A stretch of DNA of 64,000 bases, from the NCBI GenBank assembly GCA_016783905.1, contig JADHVQ010000001.1, forward strand, positions 51,670 through 115,669, read 5' to 3'. Below the pieces are notes generated by a model. It did not search any database. It was not told the DNA's origin and saw nothing but the letters and a program-made list of their open reading frames with translations. Made by a program: the position numbers and the translations under genes. Within the stretch, counting starts at the first letter, position 1; the number at the start of each line of letters is the position of its first letter. This DNA comes from Bacteroidales bacterium (GTDB taxonomy: Bacteria > Bacteroidota > Bacteroidia > Bacteroidales > FEN-979). This document shows, in pieces, positions 27,027 to 58,000 of the stretch.

Positions 27027-27455
27027 ATGATTGGAAATAAGACATTTACGATGATAAAGCCCCTTGCCGTTGAACGGGGACATGCAGGGAAGATCCTCGA
27101 CAGGATCCTGGAAGAGGGGTACCTGATCATCTCCCTGAAGATGGTTCACCTCTGCAAACGGGAAGCTGAAGCCTTCTATATTGTTCATAAAGACCGGCCA
27201 TTTTTTGATACCCTTACCGATTACATGTCCTCCGGTCCTATTGTTGCGGCCATCCTGAAAAAAGAGAATGCCGTTTTGGACTACCGCACCCTGATAGGAG
27301 TTACCAATCCGGCGGAAGCGGCCGAAGGGACCATGCGCAAACAGTTTGGCACCGACCTCACCAGGAACGCTGTGCACGGATCTGACAGTGATGAAAATGC
27401 CGAAGTCGAATGTCGCTTTTTCTTCTCAGAAATGGAAAAGATGAAGTGGCAGTAA
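27027..27455 (+). CDS. ndk: nucleoside diphosphate kinase
   Basis: 142 aa. NKTFTMIKP.., and active-site His in NAVHGSDS. Confidence 0.95.
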   Translation: MIGNKTFTMIKPLAVERGHAGKILDRILEEGYLIISLKMVHLCKREAEAFYIVHKDRPFFDTLTDYMSSGPIVAAILKKENAVLDYRTLIGVTNPAEAAEGTMRKQFGTDLTRNAVHGSDSDENAEVECRFFFSEMEKMKWQ

Positions 27456-27460
27456 ACTAG

Positions 27461-27482
27461 TTGGCAGTGGGCAGTCAGCAGT
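27461..27482. repeat. heptamer array TNGGCAG x3 between convergent ndk and protease genes
   Basis: ttggcag tgggcag tcagcag. The 13-mer ttggcagtgggca recurs at 33085-33097. Confidence 0.8.
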
Positions 27483-29182
27483 TACTGTTCCAGCCTCTGG
27501 ATTATTTTTGTTTCAACGAATGCCGGGCCATCCTGGTTCTGGATTTTCAGGATATAGATTCCCTGTTTCAGGAATGAAAGGGAGTTGAGGGTGATGAGGT
27601 TTTCACCAGCCGCACATCGGATATCATTCCGTGTAAAGAGTTGTTTGCCTGTCATATCCACAAGCTGAACCTGCATGGTTTGCGCAACCGGAATAATCAC
27701 TCTCAGGTGGATCGGTTCCTTTCCAATGGAAGGGTTGGGGTATATTACCAGTGAACCGTCTGAAATCCCGGGATCGGATCCGGTGAGCCGTTCATACGCC
27801 TGGAAGAGATTCGGAATGCCATATCCAAGATAGATATCGGGATTGGTAAACAGGGAGGCTGACTCTTCGATCGCCATCTTTACCGTTGCATTTGAATAGG
27901 CTGGGAAAGCCTGCCACAGACAGGCAGCCGAGCCGGCCATAACCGGAGATGAGAAGGAGGTTCCGCTGCCCCGTGTGATGGTTCCGTCAGAAGAGGAGAT
28001 GACAGTGAGTCGCCCCATAGCTGCCACATTGGGTTTTACGTAGGATCCATTCACCACTCCTTTGGAACTGAATGAGGCATATTGCCCCAGTGAATCTACT
28101 GCGGCAACAGCGAGTACATCTGTTCCGTCGGAAGGAGCACTCACACACTGCCAGTTCGGGTTATTCCCTTCATTCCCGGCACTGTTGACCACCAGGATTC
28201 CTTTGGTGAAGGCGATGTTCGCCCCCCGGGTTACCGGTGTTGTATTGCCTGTCATATCATCACAATGGTGGTTTTGCGTCGAGTCATTGAAGACGGTATA
28301 GCCCAGGGAGGAGTTGATGATAGCGGCACCCACACTGTCGGCAAACTCAGCTGCACTCACCCAATTGTATTCTTCCACCAGGTATTCCGAATCAGTATCT
28401 TCCGATCGCAGCAACCAATAATCGGCCTTGGGAGCGGTTCCAATCAGCTGACCCGGAACATATCCCCCCATGATAGAGAGCACGTGCATGCCATGGTTAT
28501 GCCCAATGAAGACGTTTCCTCCCGGGGTAACAAAGTCTCGGGTACCCAGGATCTGGTTGTTCGCCCATAGACTATCAAAAGGAGCTAGTTGGTCAACGAG
28601 ATTAAATCCTGCATCCAGCACAGCAATCACCATCCCCTGGCCCCGGAGTCCAAAGTCGTGCAGCAGGTCGGTACGAACCATGTGAACCTGGTCATAAGAG
28701 ATCCCATAATCAGTTGAATCAGATAGCTTCAAAGGAATACCCTGCAAGGAATTCAACGGGATAATCGAAGCTTGTTCAACTGCGAATTTATCGTGAGTAA
28801 AATCCGTTTCAGAATTCCTTAATCCATTTTTCACCACCTGTTTTACAAATGGGAGTTGTTCGATTTCAGCGATCTTGAACGTATCTGTGGTATAGATGGT
28901 AATCCCGTTAAACCATTTGGATCGTGTGATCACATCTACCCCGATCAAACTGACCTCCTCGACATAATCGGGAGTGACCGGCAGATCATTTAACTCAATT
29001 TCAATTCCTGAGATGGCCCGGCGATCCAATGCCCGTTGGGAGAGGAACTCCCAGGGACGGTCGATGGAGAAAGGGGAGTTGCTCTTATTGGTGAATTCTA
29101 CAAAGTATTTGTTGGGCGCTATTTGCGCTGTGACGGCCAGAAACAGCAAAAAGAATACAAGGGTAGCGGTTACTCTTCTCAT
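27482..29182 (-). CDS. subtilisin-like S8 serine peptidase with T9SS C-terminal sorting domain
   Basis: Triad motifs VIAVLDAGF (Asp), HGMHVLSIMGG (His) and GTSFSSPVMAG (Ser). Signal peptide. C-terminus VIYPNPS..GIYILKIQNQDG. Confidence 0.9.
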   Translation of the reverse strand: MRRVTATLVFFLLFLAVTAQIAPNKYFVEFTNKSNSPFSIDRPWEFLSQRALDRRAISGIEIELNDLPVTPDYVEEVSLIGVDVITRSKWFNGITIYTTDTFKIAEIEQLPFVKQVVKNGLRNSETDFTHDKFAVEQASIIPLNSLQGIPLKLSDSTDYGISYDQVHMVRTDLLHDFGLRGQGMVIAVLDAGFNLVDQLAPFDSLWANNQILGTRDFVTPGGNVFIGHNHGMHVLSIMGGYVPGQLIGTAPKADYWLLRSEDTDSEYLVEEYNWVSAAEFADSVGAAIINSSLGYTVFNDSTQNHHCDDMTGNTTPVTRGANIAFTKGILVVNSAGNEGNNPNWQCVSAPSDGTDVLAVAAVDSLGQYASFSSKGVVNGSYVKPNVAAMGRLTVISSSDGTITRGSGTSFSSPVMAGSAACLWQAFPAYSNATVKMAIEESASLFTNPDIYLGYGIPNLFQAYERLTGSDPGISDGSLVIYPNPSIGKEPIHLRVIIPVAQTMQVQLVDMTGKQLFTRNDIRCAAGENLITLNSLSFLKQGIYILKIQNQDGPAFVETKIIQRLEQ

Positions 29183-29191
29183 TTTTTCAGA

Positions 29192-29199
29192 TATATTTG
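29192..29199 (+). promoter_or_regulatory. candidate -7 box (TATATTTG)
   Basis: Exact TAnnTTTG in the 45-nt divergent gap, 29 nt before ATG 29228. Confidence 0.35.
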
Positions 29200-29227
29200 T
29201 GCGTGTAAAAATACTAAAAATCCGGGT

Positions 29228-30781
29228 ATGTTCACTGAAGAGGATCTGAAACAGATAGAAAGAAAAGCGATCGGACTTTCCGTCATTGACAGACAGATTG
29301 AGAATTTCAGGCGCGGATTTCCTTTCATTAACCTGGTCAGACCGGCCACTGCCGGAGATGGGATCTTTTCATCCTCTGATGATGAGCTCTCCTACTTTAT
29401 CAATTACTTCAACGATCATCTGAAGGAGCTCAGGGTCGTGAAATTTGTTCCGGCATCGGGAGCCGCTACCCGGATGTTCAAGCACCTCTTTGAGTTTCAG
29501 GAATCTTTTCATAACATACAGCGGGAGCGTGAGGCATTTCTGAAAGAGAAGGATTTCAACTCGGTATCCTACCTGGTATCACATCTGCCTGAAATTGCCT
29601 TTTATACCAGGCTGCAGGAGATCCTTTCCCGGTGCGGACTCGATACAACGAGCCTGGTGGATTCATGGCGGCTTGATCTCCTGGTCAGCTTTATCCTGGA
29701 GGAGAAGGGGTTGAATTATGCCAATCTGCCCAAAGGGTTGATCCTCTTTCATAACTACCCTGAAGGGGCGCGAACCGCTGCCGAAGAGCACCTGGTGGAG
29801 GCAGCCACCTATGCCAGGAACAGCGATGGAACAGCCCGGATCCATTTTACCATCTCTCCCGAGCACCACGAAAAGTTTCAGGCTCTTTTTAACCAGGTCA
29901 GCGAGATGTATGAATCCCGGTTCGAAGTCACTTACTCCATCGGTTTTTCAGAACAGCTTCCCTCCACGGATACCCTTGCCGTAGATGAAGAGAACAGGCC
30001 ATTCCGGAATCCCGATGGCTCCCTGTTGTTCCGGCCGGCCGGACACGGTGCCCTGTTGAAGAACCTGAATGCGTTAGATGCTGACATCATCTTTGTCAAA
30101 AATATCGACAACATTGTCCCCGACCGGCTCAAACCTGCCACCTACAGGTATAAAAAGCTGATCGGAGGTTATCTGCTCTACCTCCGTGACCATATCAACC
30201 TCTTTCTTGCCGGGGCCGACCATAAGGAGCTTTCCGAGAAGGAGATCACCAAGATGGTCAGGTTTATGGATAACCACTTGAGTATGAACCTCTCCGGCAA
30301 CTTTACCCGGCTCTCCCCGAAGGCAAAACAGAAGAAACTGATGGAACTCCTGAACCGGCCAATCCGGATTTGTGGAATGGTAAAAAATGAGGGAGAGCCG
30401 GGTGGAGGCCCATTCTGGGTAAAACGACGCGACGGAACAGTCTCTCTCCAGATCGTTGAATCATCCCAGATAGAGCTGAAGAATCCGGAACAACAAGCCA
30501 TTGTTGATAAAGCAACTCACTTCAACCCCGTTGACCTGGTTTGCTCTATCCGGAATTTCCGCGGAGAACGCTTCAACCTGGATGAGTTTGTGGATGAGGA
30601 AGCCGGATTCATCTCCCTGAAATCAAGCGGAGGCCGGATATTAAAAGCGCAAGAGCTGCCTGGACTGTGGAACGGAGCGATGGCAAACTGGATCACGATA
30701 TTTGTGGAGGTGCCAATTGTTACATTCAATCCTGTGAAGACAGTCAATGATCTGTTGCGGAAGGAACACCTGGAAGAGTAA
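29228..30781 (+). CDS. DUF4301-like protein (function unknown)
   Basis: 517 aa from MFTEEDLKQIERK... The longer tracked ORF (29036) overlaps the divergent protease start and was trimmed. Family assignment is from recollection of Bacteroidota DUF4301 N-termini, with no catalytic motif verified. Confidence 0.6.
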   Translation: MFTEEDLKQIERKAIGLSVIDRQIENFRRGFPFINLVRPATAGDGIFSSSDDELSYFINYFNDHLKELRVVKFVPASGAATRMFKHLFEFQESFHNIQREREAFLKEKDFNSVSYLVSHLPEIAFYTRLQEILSRCGLDTTSLVDSWRLDLLVSFILEEKGLNYANLPKGLILFHNYPEGARTAAEEHLVEAATYARNSDGTARIHFTISPEHHEKFQALFNQVSEMYESRFEVTYSIGFSEQLPSTDTLAVDEENRPFRNPDGSLLFRPAGHGALLKNLNALDADIIFVKNIDNIVPDRLKPATYRYKKLIGGYLLYLRDHINLFLAGADHKELSEKEITKMVRFMDNHLSMNLSGNFTRLSPKAKQKKLMELLNRPIRICGMVKNEGEPGGGPFWVKRRDGTVSLQIVESSQIELKNPEQQAIVDKATHFNPVDLVCSIRNFRGERFNLDEFVDEEAGFISLKSSGGRILKAQELPGLWNGAMANWITIFVEVPIVTFNPVKTVNDLLRKEHLEE

Positions 30782-30809
30782 TTACGAATTACGAATTACG
30801 AGAAACGAC
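30781..30809. repeat. heptamer array ATTACGA x3 + GAAACGA
   Basis: attacga attacga attacga gaaacga, starting at the last base of the stop codon. Confidence 0.8.
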
Positions 30810-30837
30810 TTAAAGGCTTTAGAGGAAACAGACAAGT

Positions 30838-31590
30838 ATGAGAGAAAGGGCGGTAAAACATTTTGGGGTTGTCAGTAAGCGGAACCGGTGGGGGCTGACG
30901 GTCTGGGGGTGGTTATCAATCCTCCTGATCATCGTTCTTGCGGTTTTCCTGTTCTTAGCCCAGGCTTATAGCTTTCTGGCCCCAATTCACCGGGAAAAGA
31001 CGGATATACTGGTGCTGGAGGGAGCAGTTCCCGATTATGTTCTCGAATCAGCAGTCAAAGAGTTTGAAGAGAATCAATACAGACTCCTGATTACTACAGG
31101 CACACCGCTTGAATGGGGCCATCTGCTCATTGAATTTGGGAATACAGCTTCTTTGGCGGCTAACTCATTAATAAAGATGGGATTTGATTCAACTGTACTT
31201 GTGACTGTAGCAACTGATGAGATCAGGAATGATCGTACCTTTAACTCTGCTCTTGAATTAGCAAGTTACCTGCGGCAATATCATCCTGAAGTGAAAGCAA
31301 TAAACCTGATGAGCTATGGCCCTCATAGCCGGAGAAGCCAGATGCTGTTTCAAGCTGCACTTGGAAAGGAGATCAAGGTTGGAATTATTGCCATCAAAAG
31401 CTATTATTACGGTCCCAACGATTGGTGGAGATCCGGCAAAGGCTTCAGAGAAGTTATGAATGAAGTACTGGGCTATATTTTTGTGAAGTTCTTTTTCGTT
31501 CCCTATCAATTACCCCCCGGGCCCCCTAAAGGGGGAGTAAGTCCCGCACGTGCGGGATTTAGGGGTAAAAATGACTTTTTGACTCAATGA
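30838..31590 (+). CDS. DUF218 / YdcF-ElyC family membrane-anchored protein with repeat-encoded C-terminal tail
   Basis: N-terminal TM helix, ILVLEGAVPDY, YGPHSRRSQMLF. The last ~25 aa (PPGPPKGGVSPARAGFRGKNDFLTQ) are encoded by the GC-hairpin element. Confidence 0.65.
   Translation: MRERAVKHFGVVSKRNRWGLTVWGWLSILLIIVLAVFLFLAQAYSFLAPIHREKTDILVLEGAVPDYVLESAVKEFEENQYRLLITTGTPLEWGHLLIEFGNTASLAANSLIKMGFDSTVLVTVATDEIRNDRTFNSALELASYLRQYHPEVKAINLMSYGPHSRRSQMLFQAALGKEIKVGIIAIKSYYYGPNDWWRSGKGFREVMNEVLGYIFVKFFFVPYQLPPGPPKGGVSPARAGFRGKNDFLTQ
31513..31565. repeat. GC-rich nested hairpin element (family member)
   Basis: ccccctaaaggggg and tcccgcacgtgcggga hairpins, flanked by cccccc...tttagggg. Confidence 0.8.
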
Positions 31591-31622
31591 CAATATGACC
31601 ATATGACCGTATGACGTATGAC
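31570..31622. repeat. octamer array NNNATGAC x6-7 containing the next gene's start codon
   Basis: tttttgac tcaatgac aatatgac catatgac cgtatgac gtatgac. The last ATG (31618) is the start of the TlpA-like gene. Confidence 0.8.
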
Positions 31623-33072
31623 TAAAACTCTTACCATCATAGCACTTCTTCTACTCGCTCTTCCCTTTTCCATGTTTGCCGGTCCGGATGGGTATACGGT
31701 GAAGTTCCGGATCCACGGTCTGAAGGATACGATCTGCCTGGTGGCCAACTACTACGGGAGTGGCACCTACGTTACTGATACGCTCGAAGTGGACGGGCAG
31801 GGCAGATGCATCTTCACCGCTCCGTCCGATCAACCCAGGGGAGTCTATATCCTGGTGATCTCAGATAACAACTATTTTGACTTTATAGTGAACAACGACC
31901 AGAAATTCACCATGGAGACCGATAAGGATGACCCTGTCAGACAGATGAAAGTCTCCGGCTCTCTCGATAACGAAGAGTTTTACGCCTACATGCAATTCAA
32001 CCAGGAGAAGTTCAAAGCCATCCAGGCACTTCAGGCGCAGCTGAAGTCCTATGAATCCAATGAGGATTCGCTCCAGGCGATCAACCAGAGGATCATCACC
32101 ATAAACGACGAGATCATCGACTACAAACTCAACATTGTGAAAGAACGGCCATTCTCCTTCCTGGCCATGCTGATCAATGCCATGAAAGAGCCGGTGATCA
32201 AAGAGATTCCCATACTGCCCAATGGGCGGAAGGATTCAACCTATAGGTACCGCTACTTCAAAGGACACTACTGGGATGACATGGATCTGGCTGACAACAG
32301 GCTGATCCGAACCCCGGTATTCCATAATAAACTGAAGAAATATTTTGACCAGCTGGTGGTGCAGCATCCCGATTCGATTTTCAAGGAGGCAGTGATCCTG
32401 ATCGAGAAGGCTCGTCCTGATCCCGAGATGTTTAAATACCTCGTGTGGTTTATCACCTATCACTACGAAAACTCGGAGATCATGGGCTTCGACAAAGTTT
32501 TTGTCGACATCGTGGATCAATACTATGTGACCGGAGAGGCTGCCTGGGTCTCCGGACCGGTACTTGAGAAGATCCTCAAAAAAGCGAGTCGGATCCGACC
32601 GTTACTGCTTGGCAAACAGGCACCCAACATGATCATGATGGATACCAGCAATCAGCTCGTTTCCCTTTACAGCATCAATGACTTCGTTACAATACTGCTC
32701 TTCTGGGATCCGGATTGCGGGCATTGTGAAAAGGAGGTCCCGCAATTGAAGGAATTTTATGAGAATTACAAAGAGAAGTATGATCTGGAGATCTTTTCTG
32801 TTTGCTCCGATACTTCGATGGCGAAGATGAAGGAATACATCCAGAAAAAGAAGATGACGTGGATCAATGTCAACGGGCCCCGGACGCTGACGGGTGACTA
32901 TCATGAGCTTTATGATATCCAAACCACCCCGGTGATCTACATCCTCGACAGGGACAAGAGGATCCTGGCAAAACGGCTACAGGCCGATCAGGTGGAGAAA
33001 TTCATCACCAACTATGTGAAGCGGGAGATCGGGTTGGACGGGTTTGACAAGTTGGATAGGTTGGACAAGTGA
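31618..33072 (+). CDS. TlpA-like thioredoxin-fold thiol:disulfide oxidoreductase with N-terminal extra domain
   Basis: 484 aa. Signal peptide. C-terminal thioredoxin motif FWDPDCGHCEKEVPQL. The last residues GLDGFDKLDRLDK are repeat-encoded. Confidence 0.8.
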   Translation: MTKTLTIIALLLLALPFSMFAGPDGYTVKFRIHGLKDTICLVANYYGSGTYVTDTLEVDGQGRCIFTAPSDQPRGVYILVISDNNYFDFIVNNDQKFTMETDKDDPVRQMKVSGSLDNEEFYAYMQFNQEKFKAIQALQAQLKSYESNEDSLQAINQRIITINDEIIDYKLNIVKERPFSFLAMLINAMKEPVIKEIPILPNGRKDSTYRYRYFKGHYWDDMDLADNRLIRTPVFHNKLKKYFDQLVVQHPDSIFKEAVILIEKARPDPEMFKYLVWFITYHYENSEIMGFDKVFVDIVDQYYVTGEAAWVSGPVLEKILKKASRIRPLLLGKQAPNMIMMDTSNQLVSLYSINDFVTILLFWDPDCGHCEKEVPQLKEFYENYKEKYDLEIFSVCSDTSMAKMKEYIQKKKMTWINVNGPRTLTGDYHELYDIQTTPVIYILDRDKRILAKRLQADQVEKFITNYVKREIGLDGFDKLDRLDK

Positions 33073-33151
33073 GACAGGCGGCAGTTGGCAGTGGGCAAAA
33101 AACTCACCAGTTCACCAGCTCACCAGCTCACCAGTTCACCAGCTCGCCAGC
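33031..33151. repeat. composite short-period array: 9-mers (GGTTGGAC-type x5), heptamers (NNGGCAG x3), octamers (CACCAGYT x6)
   Basis: gggttggac gggtttgac aagttggat aggttggac aagtgagac / gcggcag ttggcag tgggca / caccagtt caccagct caccagct caccagtt caccagct cgccagct. Fills the gap between two convergent genes. Confidence 0.85.
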
Positions 33152-33498
33152 TATTTTGCGGATTCTTCCAGCACAGCTTTAAAGGCTTCAGGGTGGTTCA
33201 TGGCCAGGTCGGCCAGGGTTTTCCTGTTGATGGCAATGTTTTTCTCGGCCAGATTCCCAATCAGTACGGAATAGGACATTCCATACCCGCGGGCGCCTGC
33301 ATTGATTCTGGTGATCCAGAGGCTGCGGAAGTTCCGCTTTTTCGTCCTGCGATCACGGTAAGCATATGAGAGGCCCTTCTCCACTGCATTTTTGGCCACG
33401 GAATGGACATTTTTTCTCCTTCCGAACTGTCCTTTGGCCTGTTTCAGGACCTTTTTTCTTCTCGCTTTTGAAGCGACTGTATTTACTGATCTTGGCAT
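33151..33498 (-). CDS. rplT: 50S ribosomal protein L20
   Basis: 115 aa. [41 protein letters not shown]. Confidence 0.95.
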
Positions 33499-33515
33499 GT
33501 GAATTGATTTTTGTC

Positions 33516-33710
33516 TTAGCTTTGAAGCATCTTGCGTACGTTGGCTGCATCTGCTTTGTCAACCGTGGTGGAGTAGGTCAGATTCCTCTTCCGCTTGGTC
33601 GACTTCTTTGTCAGGATATGGCTTTTGTACGCATGCTTCCGCTTGATCTTTCCAGTGCCCGTCAGGGTAAATCTTTTCTTGGCACCGGATTTTGATTTCA
33701 TTTTTGGCAT
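33516..33710 (-). CDS. rpmI: 50S ribosomal protein L35
   Basis: 64 aa. [36 protein letters not shown]. Confidence 0.95.
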
Positions 33711-33735
33711 TTGTATACGATATTTGATTTGTTTG

Positions 33736-33786
33736 CGACCCCTCCCCTGCCCCTCCCCTGAAGGGGAGGGATTAAGGGTGGGGTCA
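33736..33786. repeat. GC-rich hairpin / G-quadruplex-motif element filling the infC-rpmI spacer
   Basis: cccctcccctgcccctcccc tgaa ggggaggg attaa gggtggggtca. 8-bp GC hairpin plus outer gacccc/ggggtc pairing. Four C4 tracts (G4 tracts on the mRNA strand). The infC stop codon lies inside the right end. Confidence 0.8.
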
Positions 33787-34344
33787 TTTCTTTGGGGCGA
33801 TGATCATGATCATCCGTTTGCCTTCGAGGCGGGGCATCTGTTCGATTTTACCGTAGTCCACTGCACCCTGGGCAAATTTCAGAAGCATGAGCTCTCCCTG
33901 GTCTTTATAGATGATGGATCGTCCTTTAAAAAAGACATCCACTTTTACTTTTGCACCATCTTTCAAGAACTTGATCGCGTGGTTCAGCTTGAAGTTGAAA
34001 TCGTGATCATCTGTGTTGGGTCCCAATCTGATCTCCTTCACCACTACCTTGGCCGTCTTGGCCTTCATCTCCTTCTGTTTTTTCTTCAGTTCATAAAGGA
34101 ACTTCTTGTAATCTATCACTTTACAGACAGGCGGATTGGCAGTCGGAGAGATCTCTACCAGGTCTAATCCCTGGCTTTCTGCTATGGCCAGAGCTTCTCT
34201 CAGCGTATAGATATCCGCTCTGACATTGTCGCCTACCACACGAACAACAGGCGATTTTATTCTCTCATTGATAAAGTGAAGATCTTCTTTTTTCTGCGGC
34301 CTGCTATAGCGCCGCCTGGCTCCATGATATGGCTTTTTTGCTAT
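33784..34344 (-). CDS. infC: translation initiation factor IF-3, probable non-canonical ATA start
   Basis: The conserved N-terminal region ([19 protein letters not shown]) lies upstream of the tracked GTG start. The frame is closed by TAA two codons above ATA 34344, and AGGAGG lies 8 nt upstream of that ATA. Confidence 0.85.
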
Positions 34345-34362
34345 TGTTTAAACCTCCTATAT

Positions 34363-34394
34363 TTTGATTTACGATTGATACGATTTACGATTTA
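34363..34394. repeat. heptamer array (CGATTTA-type) between thrS and infC
   Basis: ttgattta cgattgata cgattta cgatttag. The same unit family occurs inside the queE insert (58310-58358). Confidence 0.8.
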
Positions 34395-36332
34395 GAGTCC
34401 TCCGAGTTCTTCTTCCATTTCGTTTTTTACGCGGTTGATGAAGGTTTCTACTTTTTCAGGTCCCAGGTCGCCCTGGCCATGTTTCCTTACAGAGACGGTG
34501 CTCCCGGTCGCTTCTCTCTCTCCAACCACCAGCATGTAAGGGATTTTCATTAACTCTGCATCGCGTATCTTCTTCCCGGTCTTTTCATTCCGTTCGTCAA
34601 CGAGGGCGCGAATTTCGGAATTATTCAGCAAATTTAAAACTTTTTTTGCATAGTCGTGATATTTTTCACTGATAGGCAGCACGATAGCCTGATCGGGAGC
34701 CAGCCACAAAGGGAAGTTTCCTCCGGTATGTTCGAGCAGCACGGCCACGAACCGTTCCATCGATCCAAAGGGGGCCCGGTGGATCATGACAGGCCTGTGC
34801 TTCTGATTATCCGCACCAATGTACTCCATCTCGAAACGATCCGGCAGGTTGTAATCAACCTGGATGGTCCCAAGCTGCCACTTCCGGCCAATGGCATCCT
34901 TCACCATGAAATCCATCTTCGGGCCATAAAAAGCGGCTTCACCGGGAACGATCTCAATATCCAGTCCACTCTCCTCTCCTACCTCCAGGATTGCCTGCTC
35001 CGCTTTGTCCCAGTTTTCATCGGATCCGATATATTTATCCTTGTTCTCTTTATCGCGCAATGAGATCTGGACAATGAAATCCTTGAAGCTCAATGCCTTA
35101 AAGATCAGCATCACGATATCAATTACCCCTTTGAACTCCTCTTTCACCTGGTCGGGCGTACAGAATATATGGGCATCATCCTGGGTGAATCCCCGCACAC
35201 GGGTTAATCCATGCAGCTCTCCGCTTTGCTCATACCGATATACAGTACCAAATTCAGCCATTCGGATCGGCAGATCCTTGTAGGAGTGGGGCTGGGAGTT
35301 GTAGATTTCGCAGTGGTGCGGACAGTTCATCGGTTTCAGGAAAAACTCTTCGCCCGGAATGGGCGTGGTGATCGGCCTGAATGAGCTCTCTCTATACTTG
35401 TGATAGTGGCCGGATTTTTTGTATAACTCTACATCGCCGATATGGGGACAGATCACCTGCACGTATCCCGTTTTTTTCTGGGTCCGTTTTAAAAAGCCCT
35501 CCAGCAGTTCCCTGAGCTGAGCTCCCCGGGGCAGCCATAACGGGAGTCCCTGCCCTACCCGTTGGGAAAAGGTGAATAATTCCAGCTCTTTCCCCAGTTT
35601 CCGGTGGTCGCGTTTCTTTGCCTCCTCCAGCATCACCAGGTACTCATCCAACTCTTTCTGTTTCGGGAAGGTGATGCCGTAGATGCGGGTCAGCTGCTTG
35701 CGTGTCTCATCGCCCCGCCAGTAAGCTCCGGCAGTAGCGAGAAGTTTTACCGCTTTGATCACACTGGTATCCGGCAGATGTGGACCCCGGCAAAGGTCGG
35801 TAAAGTGTCCCGATTCGTAGAAAGTGATCTCGCCATCGTCCAGTTCGTTGATCAGCTCTACCTTGTACTCATCTCCCTTTTTGGAGAAATAATCGAGCGC
35901 TTCGCTTTTGGTTTTTTCCTTCCGGATAAATTGCTGTTTCTCACGCGCCAACTCCTGGATTTTCTTTTCAATTTTCGGAAAATCGTCGGATGAGATCGGA
36001 TGGTCTTCGAAATCGATGTCATAGTAAAATCCATTCTCAATATCCGGGCCAATCCCGAACTTGACACCTGGATAAAGCAATTCGATGGCTTCAGCCATCA
36101 GGTGAGCGGAAGAGTGCCACATTGTGGCTTTCCCTTCGGGGTCGTTCCAGGTTAGCAGTTTAATCGAAGTATCTTTCGTAATCGGGCGGGTAGCATCCCA
36201 TACTTCCCCATCTACCATGATGGATAAAACGTTCCGCGCCAGTCCTTCACTGATGCTTTTAGCTATTTCAAGCCCTGTAATCCCTTCCCGGTATTGTCTG
36301 ACAGAATTGTCTGGTAAAGTGATCTTTATCAT
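34392..36332 (-). CDS. thrS: threonine--tRNA ligase
   Basis: 646 aa. TGS-domain start [14 protein letters not shown], class II motifs (FRCGPHLP-like [27 protein letters not shown]). Upstream of infC as in the conserved operon. Confidence 0.95.
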
Positions 36333-36359
36333 CGCTTAGTACGAGTCGATTTTGGCCGG

Positions 36360-36367
36360 CAAAGGTA
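36360..36367 (-). promoter_or_regulatory. candidate -7 box (TACCTTTG) for thrS operon
   Basis: Minus-strand TACCTTTG, 28 nt upstream of ATG 36332. Confidence 0.3.
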
Positions 36368-36429
36368 GGAAGAATCCCCGGTTTCACAAAACTTTTCTAC
36401 CTTTACAACCTATTCCAGAAATCTTTCAA

Positions 36430-36957
36430 ATGAAAAATCTATCTCTTGAACTTATTGTATTGTTTCTATCAGCAATCCTATTATTCCTATTCATGGTTTT
36501 TACACAAGCTTCTGATTCAGTCGCCTGTACAAGAGTTGTCTACCAGGGGCCAAACGGGACGATAATCACAGCGAGATCCATGGATTGGAAAGATGATATC
36601 CTGAGTAATATGTGGCTGTTCCCGAGGGGAATGGAGCGCAGCGGTGAAGCTGGCCCGAATTCCCTGAAATGGAAATCCAAATACGGAAGTGTGATCCTAT
36701 CCGGCTATGGTATCTCCACTCCCGGCCAACCAAATATTTCAAGTACGAGATGGAGAACCGTAGCCGACCAGAAAAACAAAACCTACTATTTTGAAAGTGC
36801 ATTGGCACCCAATGTATTCTGGGTTGACCTGAATGACTTGGATTTTTCAGAAAATGCTCCCACGAAGAAATTGTCCATTGCCCATGGGGAAGTTTATGCC
36901 GGCAATGTTGACAAAGACTTCCAGGATGCTCAACCATTTACATTTCAAGGGCTTTAA
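36430..36957 (+). pseudogene. choloylglycine-hydrolase (linear amide C-N hydrolase, Ntn) family gene with large in-frame internal deletion
   Basis: Signal peptide then the nucleophile Cys (SDSVACTRVVYQGPNG..SMDWKD), joined near nt 36727 directly to the extreme C-terminal family block (RWRTVADQKNKTYYFESALAPNVFWVDLNDLDFS). 175 aa, versus the ~330-350 aa I expect for the family. Confidence 0.6.
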
Positions 36958-36967: not shown

Positions 36968-37825
36968 ATGAAAACCCTCGATTATATTCTTTTTCTCGCC
37001 GGATGCCAGTCTGGTGAAGATGATTAAAATTACAACTCCCACCCCACGGTGGTCTGTAGCACATAGTCGTTATCTGATGCGTCCTGCACGGATTGGTTGT
37101 CGTAATTCAGCGTAAAACCGAGGTTGATGAAGAAATCCGGCGAATTTGCCGACATTAACTGGTTTGTCCGCTCCAGTCGGGTCTCTAACTCCAATTGGAG
37201 TAATACGAAGAAACTGGCCAGGATGGATAAAGGATCGAAAACCGAAGGAGAAACGCTGTTCAATTAGCTCTGCAAAACCTGCCATGGCCCTGATGCCAAA
37301 GGGTATCTGGCTATCGGATTGAATAACCCGGATTTCTTCCTTGCAGCCTCATTGGAATATGTTTACTATACCCTGTTCAGAGGACGTATGAACACCGCGA
37401 TGCCTTCGTGGTCGATGCTGAGTGATTGGGAGGTGGCGGATTTGTTGGCGTTCATTAGTAGGATGGGAGATTTGTCAACAAAGCATGAGGCATTAGCCAT
37501 GAGGCATTACCCCTCCCCCGGCCCTACCCTGGGGAGTAAAGAGCGTGGGAAGGAGCTCTTTGGCACCTTGTGTGCCGAGTGTCATCGCACACATGGAACC
37601 GGTCTGAAAGCACCTTCTCTGAACGACCAGGTATTCCTCAATGCGGCTACCAACAGCTTCCTGCTTGCCACCATCACCCTGGGGCGGCCGGGGACAGCTA
37701 TGCCGGTGTGGGTGGATTCGACTGCACACCACAGGGCACTGACAGCTCAGCAGCGGAAAGACTTGGTTGCATTTATCAGGTCATGGCAACTGGTTCATTT
37801 TAAACAGAGTTTCGACTCGCATTGA
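36968..37825 (+). pseudogene. decayed di-haem c-type cytochrome lipoprotein gene (four in-frame stops)
   Basis: One frame carries the lipoprotein signal MKTLDYILFLAGCQ, then stops at 37025 TAA, 37064 TAG, 37103 TAA and 37265 TAG. The last stop interrupts GETLFN*LCKTCHG. A second CAECH haem motif lies downstream. The 3' end overlaps ppc. Confidence 0.6.
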
Positions 37826-40346
37826 TATTCCCATATAAAGATCGTGTCACTATTTTCTCGTATACCTTTTTATTTCTTGTATTCTGACTGATTTTTTGTA
37901 GAGCATACTGCTGGATAACCAATAAGGGTAATACGATTTTCTCCCTGATTTTAATCGATTCCCTGGATATGGGTTCTTCTTCCATCAAAATGCCGAAATC
38001 TGAAATACGTAACAACATCTCCTTAGATAGTTTGTATTCTTCATGAAGTACATTCCAGAAATCTTTGTATTCAATATCTTCTCGCATGTACGCAGTCAAC
38101 TCAAAATTAGATTTGGATAACGACATCATGCTGTTGAGAACAAGGGCTTTAAAGAATGGGATTTCCTCGAACAGGTTCTTTAACTCTTCTAGTTTGCCTT
38201 TTTTTATCAGGGCTTGTATTGCCGTTCCGGTGCCGAAATAACCAGGGACATTTTGTTTCAACTGACTCCATGCACCAACAAAGGAAATAGCCCTCAAGTC
38301 TATCATATCCAGTTTTTTACTGTTGCCTCTTTTGCCGGGTCTACTCCCTATATTAGCCCTGTCATAGTACTTGAGTGTACTTTTGTTTTCAAGATATGGA
38401 ATGAACATTTTATGGATTTTCAGGTCATTATATTTTTCAAAACTAATGGTAGCCAGCTCTTCTATTAATTGCCTTGATTCTGCAGAGATGACATTTCCCT
38501 TCCCTAAAAAATTCCTGGATAATCCTGCTGTAAGAAGTTGCTCACAATTATGAATGAATTGTTCTTTAGTTCCATATTTACTTGTAATCGTTTGCCCCTG
38601 GATGGTCAATTGGATTTCATGATTTGCAATGTCATTGCTTTGTGCGGCGTAGAAGCGATGGGATTTACCACCACCACGGGCAGGAGGTCCGCCTCGTCCA
38701 TCAAAGAAAATGGCCTTGATATTATATTCTTCACAAACGGCAGATAAATTTTCTTTCGTTTTAAATATTGACCAGTTTGCTTTTAAATATCCCCCATCCT
38801 TGGTTCCGTCAGAAAAACCCAACATAATGGTTTGTTTATCGTTACGTTGAAAAATGTGGGATCTGTATTCCGGAAGATCAAATAGCTCTCGCATGGTCGA
38901 CTCAGAACTACTCATACCCTTCATCGTCTCAAAAAGCGGGATAATATCAAAGGTTATTTTTCTATCCTCCCAGCCACACCACCTGAATAAACCATAAACA
39001 AATAGAACTGAAAATACATCCTCAGAATTACTAATAATGTATCGATTACAACCCTCTTCTCCGTTTTTACTTTGAATGGTTTTTAGTTGGGAAATATTCC
39101 TGATCGTATCCTTAATGATCTCTTCCTTAAAGCTGTGCGCATTGGCACGAATATTTTTATGTAGCAGAATATGGATCAATTCATCTTTTCCAAGTTCATT
39201 TAAACTCTCTGAGATAAGCCTTTCTTTTTTAAATATAGCTTCTATCACTTTCTTGTGTATGCAATGGTCCTGCCTGATATCAAGTGTCGCAAAATGTGTC
39301 CTAAATAGTTTGACTTTATCTATAAAATCATCAAGATCTTTCAGATACAGGTTATGGTATTTATCTACTAATAATCTTCTGACAGCATAAAGCGGATTTT
39401 TGATCTCTTCATAGAGAATGAATTTGTCTGGATTAAACATCATATCGTATAACCTGTCTCTAAGATCATTGAGGGTATCTTCTACCTCCCTGAAGGTGAG
39501 TTTTTGTTGTAAACTCTTCACATCATCGTAATAACATTTCATCAACGTCATTCGTAATTCATCTGCCACAGCCATAGTGATTTCGGAGGTAACAAAAGGA
39601 TTACCATCCCTGTCTCCTCCAGGCCAAAATCCCAGCTTAATAATGTTGGGATTATCAAAATCATTATTTCTGATATTCTCTTTGATATAGGAATATAGAT
39701 CGCCTACCGCATGATAGTAAACATCTCTAAGAAAGTAGATAATATTCTTTGCTTCATCAAGGGGTGTAGGTTTTTTTGAGTTAATCAATGAAGTTAATCC
39801 CAGTTGCTGTAACTTCAAGTCTATCTCATCTATTTGGTTACCGGCAATAAGCGATCTCAAAGCAGTGATGATATCTAAAACTGAAGGTGGATAGAACTGT
39901 GTAGGATGAGCTGTAAATACGATTCGAGCACTGAAGGTGGATAATTTCTCTGATATACTGTCCCAACTCTTTTTACTATCTAATAATTGAAAGAAATCTT
40001 TGATAGATAGATTATTGCCAAGTTCCTGAATATTCGTATATGCAGCATCTTCTACACTGTCATAGAGTACAACTTGCCGTTCAACGTACTGAATGACTCT
40101 GAACATGAAATCAATTTTATCTTGTTCCAGCCCAATGTTTGCATTGTTGCGAAAAAAGGAATCAAGAATTTCCTGAGGAGTTTGTCCTGATTCAAGCCCT
40201 TGTTTACATAGATGATAAAGCACCGGAATAAGCATTCCAACCTTACTTTCTCTATTGTACGGCAGGTTTAGGAACAAGCTATTATAAATATCGAACTTGT
40301 TTTTAACCAATTTCCCAAACTCTTCAACTCTTTTTGATTGATACAT
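37800..40346 (-). CDS. ppc: phosphoenolpyruvate carboxylase
   Basis: 848 aa. VFTAHPTQ, GFSDGTKDGGY and FFDGRGGPPARGGG motifs. Much lower GC than the flanks. Confidence 0.9.
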   Translation of the reverse strand: MYQSKRVEEFGKLVKNKFDIYNSLFLNLPYNRESKVGMLIPVLYHLCKQGLESGQTPQEILDSFFRNNANIGLEQDKIDFMFRVIQYVERQVVLYDSVEDAAYTNIQELGNNLSIKDFFQLLDSKKSWDSISEKLSTFSARIVFTAHPTQFYPPSVLDIITALRSLIAGNQIDEIDLKLQQLGLTSLINSKKPTPLDEAKNIIYFLRDVYYHAVGDLYSYIKENIRNNDFDNPNIIKLGFWPGGDRDGNPFVTSEITMAVADELRMTLMKCYYDDVKSLQQKLTFREVEDTLNDLRDRLYDMMFNPDKFILYEEIKNPLYAVRRLLVDKYHNLYLKDLDDFIDKVKLFRTHFATLDIRQDHCIHKKVIEAIFKKERLISESLNELGKDELIHILLHKNIRANAHSFKEEIIKDTIRNISQLKTIQSKNGEEGCNRYIISNSEDVFSVLFVYGLFRWCGWEDRKITFDIIPLFETMKGMSSSESTMRELFDLPEYRSHIFQRNDKQTIMLGFSDGTKDGGYLKANWSIFKTKENLSAVCEEYNIKAIFFDGRGGPPARGGGKSHRFYAAQSNDIANHEIQLTIQGQTITSKYGTKEQFIHNCEQLLTAGLSRNFLGKGNVISAESRQLIEELATISFEKYNDLKIHKMFIPYLENKSTLKYYDRANIGSRPGKRGNSKKLDMIDLRAISFVGAWSQLKQNVPGYFGTGTAIQALIKKGKLEELKNLFEEIPFFKALVLNSMMSLSKSNFELTAYMREDIEYKDFWNVLHEEYKLSKEMLLRISDFGILMEEEPISRESIKIREKIVLPLLVIQQYALQKISQNTRNKKVYEKIVTRSLYGNINASRNSV

Positions 40347-49431: not shown

Positions 49432-49446
49432 GGTTCAGGGTTCCTG

Positions 49447-49776
49447 TCATTCCAATCCGACTTCCACCAGCTTGCCTGCTAATTGGAAGCTGGATAACGG
49501 ACTACTCAAAATAATTACATGAAACCGGTTTGCAAGTTCAATAGTCCCTTCCGGAACCTCTTTCCCATTCGTAACAATGACCGCTGCGATATCAATCAGG
49601 TTGGCAGCTGATACGACGTTTTTATGTGTCTGAACAGTGAGCCAGATATTACCCATCTCTGCACTGCTCATGACATCTGAAAGCATATCAGAAATAAATA
49701 CACCTGATACCTCTTTGTCTTCTACGTTTGTAAGTATGACAAGCGAGAGTTTTTCAATGATTTCCTTTAGCTTCAT
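49447..49776 (-). CDS. stand-alone DRTGG-domain protein
   Basis: 109 aa, paralogous to the N-terminal half of the downstream gene (SGVFISDMLSDVM / SGIYASDLMSDVL). Confidence 0.65.
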   Translation of the reverse strand: MKLKEIIEKLSLVILTNVEDKEVSGVFISDMLSDVMSSAEMGNIWLTVQTHKNVVSAANLIDIAAVIVTNGKEVPEGTIELANRFHVIILSSPLSSFQLAGKLVEVGLE

Positions 49777-49813
49777 AGTTGATCTCTTTATTTAGTGATT
49801 TTTCTTTTTGAAG

Positions 49814-50368: not shown

Positions 50369-50472
50369 TTAGAAGATTGAAAAAAGGGTTATCGAGAGAT
50401 TCCCCGTTGATTAGGGTAGGGATATAATTGATCCGCATCTGGTTATCTGGTAGAATTTGTGAGTTACATGTA

Positions 50473-50480
50473 CAAATATA
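50473..50480 (-). promoter_or_regulatory. candidate -7 box (TATATTTG) for the nine-gene redox operon
   Basis: Minus-strand TATATTTG ~105 nt upstream of ATG 50368. A TTTG lies 13 nt further upstream, which is shorter than the usual spacing. Confidence 0.3.
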
Positions 50481-50539
50481 ATTCAAGATCGGACAAATCC
50501 AGCTCCGGGAGGAAGTTTTTTTATCCTGAAGCAGGATTT

Positions 50540-56002: not shown

Positions 56003-58000
56003 CTACCTCCCCACAATCCTGAACTCTGTCCGCCGGTTGTTGGCCCGGCCGGCTTCGGTGTCGTTGGTGTCGATGGGATTGTCAAATCCATAGCCGGAAT
56101 AGGTCATGCGGTCATATGAAATACCCTGGTCGACAAGGTAGTTGAATACTGCCTTCGCCCTGTTTTCAGACAATTCCAGGTTGTGCTCCTCAGAGCCTAT
56201 GATGTCGGTATGGCCGCTGATCTCGATTTTCAGTGATGGATTAGTCCTTAGGAGATGTACTAGTTTCTCTAGTTCGATGTAAGATATAGGTTTTAAGTCG
56301 TACTTATCCGTATCAAAAAAAATGTTTTTCAGCACCACGGTTTCTCCTACCCTGATGGGTTGGAGGGGGATATTTTTCAGAAAAGGTTTCGCCTGATCAC
56401 GGATGCCGGTCAATGCAAAATTATCTGAATAAAACAGATACCCTTCACGGGAAACATTCAGCGCATAATCCCGGTCGGCAGGTAAACAAACCAGAAAAGA
56501 TCCATCAACCGGGTCGGAGATAGATTGAACGGCAACCTCGTTGCGTTCCAGGTCAGTTAGCTCAAAATGGGCTTGCAGGAGATTTCCGGTCTCTTTATCG
56601 AAGACAATCCCTTTCAGGTAGGTGACCGGATTGGGCTGTGCCTCTTTGTATAGCGGAAAAGAGTAAATATCCTGCCTCCCTTTTCCCCCAAACTTATCGG
56701 AAGAGATGTACGCAACATCTCCGGTGGAGTTTACGACCAGGGTAATTTCATCGGCGTAGGTGTTGATCGGATAGCCCAGGTTTTCAGGCGTCTGCCAGGC
56801 GCCATCCAGCTTCCTGCGGGTATAGAAGAGGTCGAGACCTCCCATCCCCTCATGTCCTTTTGAAGCAAAATATAACGTTTGATCATCAGGATGGATGAAG
56901 GGATTTTGTTCCTCTCCGGCGGTATTCACCGAGTCGCCCAGGTTGACGGGAGGGGTCCAGTCACCCGTGGGCAATAACTCGCTCTTCCAGATGTCGCTGC
57001 TCCCCTTTCCACCGGATCGTTTGCTTGCAAAATAAAGCGTTTTGCCGTCAGAGGAGAAAGAGGGCTGTGAATCCCAGGTCATAGAATTGACCACCGGTCC
57101 CAGGTTCCGGGGTGCCGACCACCGGTTACCCATCTTCCACGACCAGTAAATATCGCAACTCCCGAAGCCATCTTCACGCTGACAGGCAGCAAAAAACAGC
57201 AACTGTCCATCAGGAGAGATGGAGATCGCCCCTTCGTTCCCACGTGTGTTGATGGGCGGCCCCAGGTTATAAGCCCTGAGCCAGGCAGAATCGCCGGAGA
57301 GGGAGGAAAGGTAGAAATCCTCTTCAATGGCTTCTGATCTCACGTCGGTAATGGCTCTGGTAGGCAGGCGGCGGGTGAAATAGAGCGTCTGCTTATCGGA
57401 GGAGATGGCATTGATGTATTCGTCGTGCATGGTATTGATGCTATCGCCCAAATTAACAGGATTGAATGGCACCGGGTGGCTTACCATCTCTATCCCGAAG
57501 TCACACCTGTGGATGTTCTCCTCGGTTTGCCATCGCCGGTTGGAAGGCCCTTTATTAAAGGAGAGATACCTGATATAATCCCGTTTTGCCTCTTCGTACC
57601 GACCCGTAAGTAGTTTCAGGTTCCCCAGAATCACATAGAGGTTATAATCCAGGCCGGGAAGCAGCTGAACCGCCTGGCCGTAATTCGTAATCGCTCCCTC
57701 CATATCGTGTTGCTCTGCCGCCAGATCTCCTTTCAGGGCATAGGCTTCGGCAAAACCGGGGTCAGCCTCCAGCGCTTTCCCCAGGGAAGCAATAGCCTGA
57801 GAAAAATCCCTCCGCTGGTACTGCTCATAAGCCTGTTGATAAAATTTCTTTGCTTTTTTGGAAGAGCTAGAGAGGCTTTGTGAAGATTGAGCCAGTGACT
57901 CGTGACCGGTGACCAGTGACCAGTAACCAGTGAGTGGTGAGTAGTGAATAGTGAGTAGTGAGAAGCAAAAAAGGAGAGATATTTTTAGGAGTGTTTTCAT
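56003..58000 (-). CDS. OmpA-family peptidoglycan-binding protein with TPR, PD40/TolB-like beta-propeller repeats
   Basis: 665 aa. TPR region (AEAYALKGDLAAE..). Repeated TLYF(A/T)S(K/R)R propeller motifs. C-terminal OmpA_C (FDTDKYDL...SGHTD..G....N..LS..RA..V..YL). N-terminal region contains the heptamer array. Confidence 0.85.
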   Translation of the reverse strand: MKTLLKISLLFCFSLLTIHYSPLTGYWSLVTGHESLAQSSQSLSSSSKKAKKFYQQAYEQYQRRDFSQAIASLGKALEADPGFAEAYALKGDLAAEQHDMEGAITNYGQAVQLLPGLDYNLYVILGNLKLLTGRYEEAKRDYIRYLSFNKGPSNRRWQTEENIHRCDFGIEMVSHPVPFNPVNLGDSINTMHDEYINAISSDKQTLYFTRRLPTRAITDVRSEAIEEDFYLSSLSGDSAWLRAYNLGPPINTRGNEGAISISPDGQLLFFAACQREDGFGSCDIYWSWKMGNRWSAPRNLGPVVNSMTWDSQPSFSSDGKTLYFASKRSGGKGSSDIWKSELLPTGDWTPPVNLGDSVNTAGEEQNPFIHPDDQTLYFASKGHEGMGGLDLFYTRRKLDGAWQTPENLGYPINTYADEITLVVNSTGDVAYISSDKFGGKGRQDIYSFPLYKEAQPNPVTYLKGIVFDKETGNLLQAHFELTDLERNEVAVQSISDPVDGSFLVCLPADRDYALNVSREGYLFYSDNFALTGIRDQAKPFLKNIPLQPIRVGETVVLKNIFFDTDKYDLKPISYIELEKLVHLLRTNPSLKIEISGHTDIIGSEEHNLELSENRAKAVFNYLVDQGISYDRMTYSGYGFDNPIDTNDTEAGRANNRRTEFRIVGR
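57895..57964. repeat. two-block heptamer array (GTGACCN x5, GTGAGTA-type x5) inside the OmpA-like coding region
   Basis: gtgactc gtgaccg gtgacca gtgacca gtaacca gtgagtg gtgagta gtgaata gtgagta gtgagaa. Translated as LLTIHYSPLTGYWSLVTGH just after the signal-peptide core. Confidence 0.85.

Follow-up and report, generated by a model that had tools for sequence, protein, structure and literature searches.

Lineage-specific tandem arrays of 7-8 nt units adjoining stop codons or lying in frame inside housekeeping genes of an uncultured Bacteroidales bacterium

As Mazel et al. reportedly described in 1990, the STRR of heterocystous cyanobacteria are several dispersed families of tandem heptamers, most of them intergenic. 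Heptamers also form the most abundant class of LSSR, for which polymerase slippage has been proposed (Mrazek, Guo and Shah 2007, as summarized in PMC4679880). In Xanthomonas and Nostoc, heptamers of the GGGNATC and GGGGA(C/T)T types, which form G-quadruplexes (G4), mostly lie 0-50 bp from a stop codon or overlap it, with the G-rich strand being the coding one; their arrays are in excess in non-coding DNA, rare between divergent genes, not phase-variable and of no known function, and they occupy the same intergenic sites in related species with varying length and sequence (Rehm 2015, PMC4692102). TAACTGA heptamers have been reported in Beggiatoaceae, cyanobacteria and five Bacteroidetes, including the Bacteroidales member Paludibacter; the Bacteroidetes spacers concerned hold other heptamers as well, and close relatives lack repeats at the same site (MacGregor 2015, PMC4679880). 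Within genes, the Rickettsia palindromic elements (RPE) are in-frame, translated and tolerated insertions in unrelated housekeeping genes (reviewed in PMC10969869). Here, we analysed the short-period tandem arrays of a 64-kb stretch of DNA from an uncultured Bacteroidales bacterium (hereafter the window, whose positions serve as coordinates throughout). A first-pass annotation of this DNA had supposed that no equivalent of such arrays was described in Bacteroidota, which the TAACTGA and other heptamers published in five Bacteroidetes contradict. Our best reading is that the arrays are of the same kind as STRR, heptameric LSSR, GGGNATC and TAACTGA repeats, and have proliferated in one uncultured Bacteroidales lineage. 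We propose that they are simple-sequence repeats born by slippage, with units of 7 and less often 8 nt, which persist where constraint is low and for which a function is not required; we would put the probability of this reading at about 0.55.

Arrays were called with Tandem Repeats Finder (TRF), complemented by direct reading of 27300-34600 and of the other stretches cited, on a gene map of the window that was made manually, and chance expectation was taken from 100 block-wise dinucleotide shuffles. TRF placed all arrays within a few bases of where the first-pass annotation had read them, the one at 58425-58487 being weak (CTTGAAC x2.4 plus one distant copy). At least ten tandem-heptamer sites are dispersed over the 64 kb. 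Period-7 arrays number 12, compared with 1.23 +/- 1.1 in the shuffles, and at a score of at least 40 there are four of them and none in the 100 shuffles; for periods 7-9, 14 and 21 together, 10 arrays reach this score and 0.34 are expected. Since periods 1-6 and 10-13 stay at chance level, the excess is restricted to units of 7-8 nt. The same preference is seen when the window and the clade loci are counted together (36 arrays of period 7, 21 of period 8, four of period 9 and two of period 10, with periods 5-6 near zero). The 13-mer TTGGCAGTGGGCA, noticed earlier as being identical at two sites, indeed occurs twice in the window (second copy at 33085) against an expectation of 0.06.

For comparison, we used metagenome relatives retrieved with the TlpA-like protein of the window (L081-L085; relatives of 75-82% identity), four annotated syntenic loci (L120-L123, L120 being from assembly GCA_014860625.1), which were used with the window for the placement counts, and more distant relatives (L001-L012). 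Among GTDB species representatives, the best match to the threonyl-tRNA synthetase ThrS is 77% identical (UBA6229) and the next ones are from metagenome-assembled genomes of Lentimicrobiaceae. The density of period-7 arrays with a score of at least 38 is 6.2 per 100 kb in the window, 18-34 in close relatives, values inflated by the choice of the loci, 9.2 in a group whose TlpA-like protein is 46-63% identical and 1.3-1.9 in other Bacteroidota (~1.3 Mb). Arrays of periods 7-8 are thus 3-20 times as dense as in other Bacteroidota loci, with the highest ratios coming from loci chosen around array-bearing genes; period 8 follows a pattern similar to that of period 7 and periods 5-6 are essentially absent. 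The arrays are a trait of this Bacteroidales lineage.

In the 27-34 kb block every array touches a stop codon. Pfam scans give the gene order as ndk facing an S8 peptidase gene, followed by DUF4301, DUF218 and a gene for a TlpA-like thioredoxin protein, which converge on rplT-rpmI-infC-thrS; farther along the window, the reverse strand carries a gene for an OmpA/TPR/PD40 protein, queE, folD and ffh, followed by a T9SS protein gene and, on the reverse strand again, argS. The units TTGGCAG-TGGGCAG-TCAGCAG (27461-27481) fill the 26-nt spacer between the convergent ndk (stop 27455) and S8 peptidase gene (stop 27482). On the forward strand, AATTACG x3.1 and degenerate units (30780-30812) have the TAA stop of DUF4301 within the first unit and end 25 nt before the DUF218 start, and six period-8 units of the form (N3)ATGAC (31570-31622) hold both the stop of the DUF218 open reading frame (ORF; TGA, 31588-31590) and the start of the TlpA-like gene (31618). 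At the other end of this gene (ORF 31618..33072), 5.2 copies of the 9-mer GGTTGGACA (33031-33078, forward) are translated in frame as a C-terminal tail ending in LDGFDKLDRLDK before the stop. They are followed by a second copy of the TNGGCAG family, GCGGCAG-TTGGCAG-TGGGCA (33077-33097, forward), and by six CTGGTGAR units on the reverse strand (33103-33152; CTCACCAG x6.2 on the forward strand, TRF score 79-93), which adjoin the rplT stop at 33151-33153. Finally, four TAAATCG-type heptamers on the reverse strand (34363-34394; in TRF GATTTAC x3.9, 34366-34394) include the thrS TAA stop as their first unit and end before the conserved AGGAGG/ATA-start region of infC. These data agree with the earlier description of different unit types concatenated head to tail and of unit families common to several loci.

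Across the window and L120-L123, 25 of the 49 arrays are intergenic or straddle a gene boundary, non-coding DNA making up only 5-12% of the sequence. Of these 25, 16 are no more than 4 nt away from a stop codon; when arrays are placed at random in the same spacer, 6.6 +/- 1.9 are expected to be so, and none of 2000 simulations reached 16. The enrichment at 3' ends that the first-pass annotation proposed to look for is thus present; its statement that arrays abut stop or start codons is borne out for stops but not for starts, whose proximity is not enriched (4 versus 4.7 expected for the same 25 arrays). Likewise, its placement of the arrays exactly at gene boundaries holds for 27-34 kb, but about half of the clade arrays lie inside coding sequences, and this includes the supposed boundary arrays at 57.9, 58.3-58.5 and 63.8 kb, which are inside the ORFs of the OmpA/TPR protein, queE and argS.

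The arrays fold no better than their shuffles (z-scores of -1.4 to +1.7), which gives no structural support to the suggestion that they substitute for terminators; the AATTACG array at 30780-30812, for example, has a minimum free energy of 0 (z +1.7). We therefore rejected the idea that the arrays contain an intrinsic terminator or a structured RNA, the terminator scan returning only a weak 6-pair match at 27460. It had also been proposed that the Bacteroidales-1 RNA lies at the rplT-proximal array, an idea that has the location downstream of rplT in its favour and nothing else. This array has a fold z-score of -0.29 on the rplT strand, no Rfam match reached the gathering score in the whole window, and the Bacteroidales-1 covariance model gave no match in 32900-33900 even at E <= 10; it gave none in seven relatives either, so that these offer no positive control. 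We consider it extremely improbable that this array is Bacteroidales-1, another structured non-coding RNA or an intrinsic terminator, and we say the same of the arrays being assembly artefacts, given the agreement of six independent assemblies detailed below. A canonical bidirectional intrinsic terminator is found at 63530-63566 (GAGGCTC..GAGCCTC with T9 and a preceding A run) between the convergent T9SS-protein gene and argS, and the organism therefore does use ordinary terminators.

Within the species the arrays are stable. Four independent metagenome assemblies (three ENA samples and one NCBI metagenome) align to 47997-64000 with 99.2-99.96% identity and show no indels inside any array, their gaps and a mismatch cluster being confined to the gene at 48.0-49.0 kb; the queE product is present on seven contigs. 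Two assemblies of Logan read sets reproduce 31520-33148 at 100% identity (L124, corresponding to 31520-33148, and L125, to 31539-33133). With six independent assemblies reproducing the arrays, the possibility of an assembly artefact, raised in the first-pass annotation, was rejected. No copy-number differences were found among the six (99.2-100% identity), consensus assemblies being unable to exclude minor variants. Each of the two Logan contigs, which carry the TlpA-like gene, breaks off within the CACCAG array or within the hairpin module described below. Contig ends in repeats are typical de Bruijn graph breaks. Contingency loci, in which copy number would act as an on/off switch, could be suspected from a period that is not a multiple of three and from the occurrence of some arrays in the 5' portion of a gene for an outer-membrane protein. 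The lack of array indels among assemblies from different samples, the mostly housekeeping nature of the genes concerned (thrS, rplT, queE, argS, folD) and the position of most arrays 3' of stops, where length changes cannot shift the frame, make this very improbable.

Between species the picture is different: in the relatives retrieved with the TlpA-like protein, synteny is retained but the arrays are not. At the 3' end of this gene the window reads GGTTGGACA, TNGGCAG and CTCACCAG x6; L082 reads GTGAACAA x7, starting inside the conserved NYV codons; L085 reads AGCGGACA, GTATTACT, CACCATNG x12; L083 holds two to three units resembling CTCACCAG, and L081 none. The arrays of L082 and L085 begin at the same codons as the GGTTGGACA array of the window, and relatives that do not have the 9-mer array end in NYVKRELGEILKED (L081) or NYVKQELGDILK (L083) just before the stop. 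L081 carries GCAGCAGGCAGTT where the window has its TNGGCAG array (33077-33097), and beside the rplT stop the CTGGTGA unit is single-copy in L083 and L082 (one to three CTCACCAG-type copies overall). The counterpart of the ATGAC array is TGACTTAA x5.6 in L083/L084 and one copy in L082, and both units resemble the conserved gene start ATGACTAA. Arrays of the related GAAGTAC/AATTACG type are found in L081 and L082. The single-copy CTGGTGA of the relatives and the likeness of the ATGAC units to the gene start argue for in-place expansion from local seeds.

The window, L081, L082 and L083 each carry arrays in the thrS-infC spacer. These have different units (TAATTGA and TTCGTAA in both L081 and L083, CGAAGGA in L082), begin exactly at the thrS stop and stop short of the conserved AGGAGG-N(7-9)-ATA initiation region; no array is present in this spacer of L001-L012. 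In all relatives examined (17 loci; window 34340-34362), the Shine-Dalgarno-like box AGGAGG stands 7-9 nt before the ATA start of infC. Bacteroidota rarely use Shine-Dalgarno sequences, and the arrangement fits an autoregulation of infC through its unusual start codon. The comparison with sister genomes suggested in the first-pass annotation thus reveals units and copy numbers that differ at orthologous sites: unit and copy number turn over between species, with position and period being kept, and the arrays grow in place from short local seeds. Such seeds are CTGGTGA at the rplT stop, the gene start ATGACTAA, GTGAA of the NYV codons and the TAA of thrS.

Inside coding sequences, the arrays of the window and L120-L123 are confined to a loop of queE, the linker of argS and the N-terminus of the OmpA protein. 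In the latter (ORF 56003..58000), CCAGTGA x6 and AGTGAGT x4.9 (57892-57962, reverse strand) are read in frame behind a signal-peptide-like N-terminus, and the orthologs have arrays of other units at this place (GTCACCG x6.6 in L120, GGTCATT x5.3 in L121). In argS, heptamers of the CCTCGTC and GATTCGC types on the sense strand (63822-63937, reverse strand; GAGGGAC and GAATCGC arrays at 63826-63917 in TRF) are translated in frame in the variable linker before the DALR domain; the CCTCGTC-type array is found at the same place in three genomes (window, L120, L121), and one length difference is exactly 7 amino acids, that is 21 nt or three heptamers.

The queE array is a mosaic of TTCAAGG units, a double-hairpin module and ATCGTAA-type heptamers (58309-58497, reverse strand; TTACGAT x4 at 58314-58355 in TRF), whose 189 nt or 63 codons, a few native flanking codons included, lie between the conserved YNLDYLC and FLETSG motifs. 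The queE ORF encodes 261 amino acids in the window, and databases call a 246-amino-acid product. In our alignment, nothing separates LC..LK from IRTFLETSG in ordinary and outgroup QueE proteins, and about 20 close relatives (63-79% QueE identity) have 7-66 amino acids of mutually unrelated sequence at this site. Reading of the DNA revealed that five such inserts are composed of heptamer arrays and hairpin modules, with the units TTCAAGG and ATCGTAA in the window, ATCCAGT and CATCCGG in L120, GCACAGA and ATCCGGC in L121, GGGTCGA, CCAAATC, ATCACGG and CTTCGAC in L122 and TGGGCAG-TCAGCAG-TTGGCAG in L123. The L122 insert opens with GGGTCGA units and closes with their reverse complement. In the five genomes, the coding frame of the insert is free of stop codons, compared with 1-5 stops in each of the other two sense frames (three and three in the window). 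The queE and argS inserts are thus evidently translated, as the lack of in-frame stops and the in-frame length steps indicate, and tolerated as disordered loops, it being understood that they were ascertained via intact predicted proteins. The AlphaFold (AF2) model of QueE, in which the core is modelled and residues 106-150 have a pLDDT below 50 with no secondary structure, likewise predicts a disordered insert.

The GC-rich hairpin modules that accompany several arrays consist of an outer stem, ACCCC(T)AAA/TTT(A)GGGGT, around two hairpins of the CCCC-TNNA-GGGG type, and their fold z-scores range from -2 to -4.4. The one at 31508-31568 (forward strand; ACCCC..CCCCCTAAAGGGGG-AGTAAG-TCCCGCACGTGCGGGA-TTTAGGGGT, z -2.0) is the 3' tail of the DUF218 ORF and comprises the outer stem and two hairpins; it is conserved in L082 with a second hairpin that is different and still paired, half-conserved in L083 and absent from L081 and L085. 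A second module (33737-33786, reverse strand; GACCCC..CCCTCCCCTGAAGGGGAGGG..GGGGTC, -33.1 kcal/mol, z -4.15) begins at the infC stop codon, upstream of rpmI, and returned only sub-threshold noise in Rfam. The module of the queE insert (58358-58422) is in frame and inverted relative to L120 and L123. Two to three tandem modules extend between the queE start and folD (58790-58895, -58.1 kcal/mol, z -4.41), the last one overlapping the folD stop at 58879, and an orthologous palindromic element is found at L120:9895-9990; in other relatives the module is found at L082:9915-9975 and L123:6195-6260. A literature search on the hairpin sequence returned nothing relevant. The modules look like separate, clade-specific palindromic elements of the REP/MITE type, which share tolerant sites with the arrays.

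Two more sites associate heptamers with inverted repeats. The divergent intergenic region at 52746-52903 holds AT-rich CAAATAA-type heptamers and an inverted counterpart (TTATTTG), whose arms (52767-52791 and 52879-52903) are 84% complementary and fold not above shuffles. In the ffh-folD spacer (59790-59950, reverse strand), degenerate CAAATNN heptamers and an inverted copy form arms of 46 nt with 74% complementarity, giving a ~21-bp stem (z -3.0).

To explain these arrays by slippage, we suppose that their generation, by slipped-strand replication or unequal recombination, mechanistically favours units of 7-8 nt. The arrays survive only where constraint is low: directly after stops, in N- or C-terminal protein tails that are dispensable, and in a small number of disordered loops. 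The anchoring at stops would have two causes: the first unconstrained base is the one that follows the stop, with the 20-60 nt before a start probably carrying promoter and initiation signals, and an ORF that enters an array would terminate at its first in-frame stop. No dedicated function would be needed. Slippage combined with low constraint accounts for the anchoring at stops, the lack of anchoring at starts, the turnover of units, the unstructured nature of the arrays and their stability within the species.

Several observations weigh against this reading, among them the inflation of the clade densities by locus choice and the fact that slippage itself was not observed, no polymorphism being found among the assemblies compared. 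Others concern the strand. In the annotated set, 14 of the 17 arrays that abut a stop have a purine-rich coding strand, and in an independent, ORF-based set the counts are 14 versus 1 (p ~0.001) for purine richness and 14 versus 3 for G > C; G exceeds C on the coding strand in 11/16 arrays of the annotated set and in 14/17 of the second one, and convergent spacers hold a separate G-rich block for each gene. This bias could mean an RNA-level role, with the arrays being functional cis-elements on the transcript or the non-template strand at gene 3' ends, such as a G-rich or G-quadruplex-prone pause site or stabiliser, C-rich Rho-loading sites for the convergent transcript or multimeric sites for an RNA-binding protein with an OB-fold or RRM, one heptamer per monomer; some arrays may also be unstructured leaders for initiation independent of Shine-Dalgarno sequences. 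The anchoring at stops, the persistence of arrays by position across species in the thrS-infC, DUF218-TlpA and TlpA-rplT spacers and folds less structured than those of shuffles point in this direction, as do the identical placement rule of the G4-forming GGGNATC repeats (PMC4692102) and the binding of CspB to heptamer repeats, one protein per heptamer, as cited in PMC4679880. A cis-acting role nevertheless seems rather unlikely to us. Unit sequence is not conserved at orthologous sites, some of which have no array in L081 and L085, arrays lie within the queE and argS coding regions, where a 3'-end function would be senseless, and the window arrays have GG and not GGG tracts. Moreover, an ordinary intrinsic terminator is used at 63530-63566, and several convergent gene pairs with spacers shorter than 15 nt carry no array. 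We did not count purine or G richness as function because the stop codons (TAA, TAG, TGA) are made of T plus purines, so that arrays that supply or contain stops are necessarily enriched in purines and G and the strand bias arises by construction; as proof of function, purine richness was downgraded for this reason.

The other points against slippage bear on dispersal. The families TNGGCAG, GGGTCGA, ATCCGGC, AATTACG/GAAGTAC and AAATCGT recur at non-orthologous places, only in the clade and in genomes whose QueE is only ~63-67% identical, and the 17-mer AGTTGGCAGTGGGCAGT is common to 27459 of the window and L120:15592, two non-orthologous sites. Pure in-place slippage does not predict this. Furthermore, the queE site acquired unrelated arrays repeatedly and arrays are often joined to hairpin modules, which suggests insertion or a hotspot. 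Slippage alone leaves the dispersal of identical unit families and the association with hairpins unexplained, and the spread of families to non-orthologous sites may involve ectopic recombination or some mobility.

A serious rival is therefore that the arrays form, together with the hairpin modules, mobile mosaic elements that are tiny and non-autonomous (compare REP/BIME, the SDRs of cyanobacteria and RPEs), inserted after stops and in frame into loops by some enzyme and remodelled by slippage afterwards. Besides the shared families and 17-mer, the same grammar of stop, TNGGCAG, period 8 and hairpin is read at L120:15587-15690 (TAG, TNGGCAG x3, ATCCAGTN x8, hairpin module), the queE site is empty in outgroups and filled with unrelated mosaics in relatives, with the hairpin in both orientations, and the hairpin motif is strictly clade-specific (eight sites in the window and seven in clade loci, compared with none in 1.65 Mb of other Bacteroidota loci). 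The L120:9895-9990 element has inverted ends of ~29 nt, in-frame occurrence extends over unrelated conserved genes (queE insert, argS linker, folD and DUF218 tails), and RPEs provide a precedent for in-frame palindromic insertion (PMC10969869). On the other hand, no target-site duplications are definable and the arrays have no defined termini, the seeds are native local sequence at several sites, the module copies are diverged and not near-identical, and the conspecific assemblies show no variation. A scan of 19 window proteins revealed no transposase or RAYT-like (IS200/IS605-like) gene. We regard it as a possibility, to be held tentatively, that arrays and hairpins form one previously undescribed class of mobile mosaics that integrate at stops and in frame into surface loops of enzymes (QueE, ArgS and the FolD tail). 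If so, they would create hypervariable disordered segments in essential enzymes and be a Bacteroidota counterpart of RPEs and SDRs, with a possible RNA-level role at 3' ends.

The slippage reading, which we prefer, extends the heptamer-repeat phenomenon of STRR, LSSR, GGGNATC and TAACTGA to an uncultured Bacteroidales clade, and offers a simple geometric account of why such arrays hug stops, which may hold for the Xanthomonas and Nostoc repeats too. The spacers and the QueE loop provide clean comparative material on repeated gain, unit turnover and frame-preserving evolution across genus-level relatives. In practice, short-read assemblies break at arrays and hairpins, which also extend or cut short predicted proteins and yield spurious 'hypothetical' tails in annotation.

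Other features of the window deserve mention. Its first 27000 nt are tightly packed operons with spacers mostly below 30 nt and hold no array of the heptamer family, TRF returning only a chance-level row of score 30 at 6387 and the heptad repeat of a histidine kinase; arrays are restricted to stretches that offer spacers or tolerant protein segments. The three copies of a 21-nt repeat at 16645-16708, which encode the RELESRI heptads of the kinase coiled coil, were excluded as a protein-level repeat, and the 9-mer CAGATCAAG in ffh was excluded because L120, L122 and L123 conserve it at the same position of the protein. An ORF of the choloylglycine-hydrolase (CBAH) family at 36352-36957 encodes 201 amino acids that match the C-terminal part of the Pfam profile only; it has an apparent internal deletion, the syntenic L121 gene encoding 350 amino acids, and is possibly a pseudogene. 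The phosphoenolpyruvate carboxylase gene at 37800-40346 has a GC content of 0.366 compared with ~0.47 for the window, and may have been acquired horizontally.

How, then, do the arrays compare with the known systems? Like STRR, they are tandem heptamers dispersed at many loci and found at gene ends, so that the likeness seen in the first-pass annotation holds in kind; but no tandem pair of the STRR units CCCCAGT, TTGGTCA or CAACAGT occurs in the window and the fetched loci (~1.8 Mb), the host is a Bacteroidales member and not a heterocystous cyanobacterium, and the arrays also lie in frame in housekeeping genes. With the TAACTGA repeats they have in common heptamers at gene boundaries, some over stops and some translated at protein termini (PMC4679880); tandem TAACTGA (TAACTGATAACTGA) is absent from the same ~1.8 Mb, and those repeats lie mostly just upstream of starts, whereas the present arrays are at stops. 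LSSR, as outlined in PMC4679880, are tandem 5-11 nt units longer than chance, dominated by heptamers, sporadic among lineages, in excess in non-coding DNA and of proposed slippage origin. Here too, frequency is above that expected from composition, heptamers dominate and arrays are in excess in non-coding DNA; judged against that outline, the differences are the many concatenated unit families, the common period 8 and a host lineage outside the survey. The stop-proximal placement with a G-rich coding strand is that of the GGGNATC repeats, a likeness for which the composition of stop codons may be partly responsible. The GGGNATC system is dominated by a single G3 unit and prefers four units, whereas dozens of units are found here and those of the window have GG and not regular GGG tracts, with no GGGNATC/GGGGAYT unit having at least four G3 tracts; several clade arrays are of the GGG type (TAGGGAT x11, GGGAAGTA x7, AGGGTGTG).

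As for the hairpin modules and the in-frame mosaics, they resemble RPEs in being in-frame repeats in unrelated conserved genes and in their palindromic structure. RPEs measure 100-150 bp and have a conserved family sequence, whereas the inserts described here are hypervariable heptamer mosaics with double hairpins of ~60 nt. With the REP/BIME elements of enterobacteria and pseudomonads the modules share the form of short, GC-rich imperfect palindromes that cluster after stops, alternate in orientation and build mosaics (REPINs, PMC3116915). The sequence of their motif is different. To our knowledge, intragenic in-frame copies are not typical of REPs. In the Bacteroidales literature we found no description of this array repertoire, of the hairpin module or of the in-frame mosaics of queE and argS. 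The arrays are thus a real, lineage-specific member of a known and functionally unexplained class of repeats, whose notable extension is the frame-preserving colonisation of housekeeping proteins.

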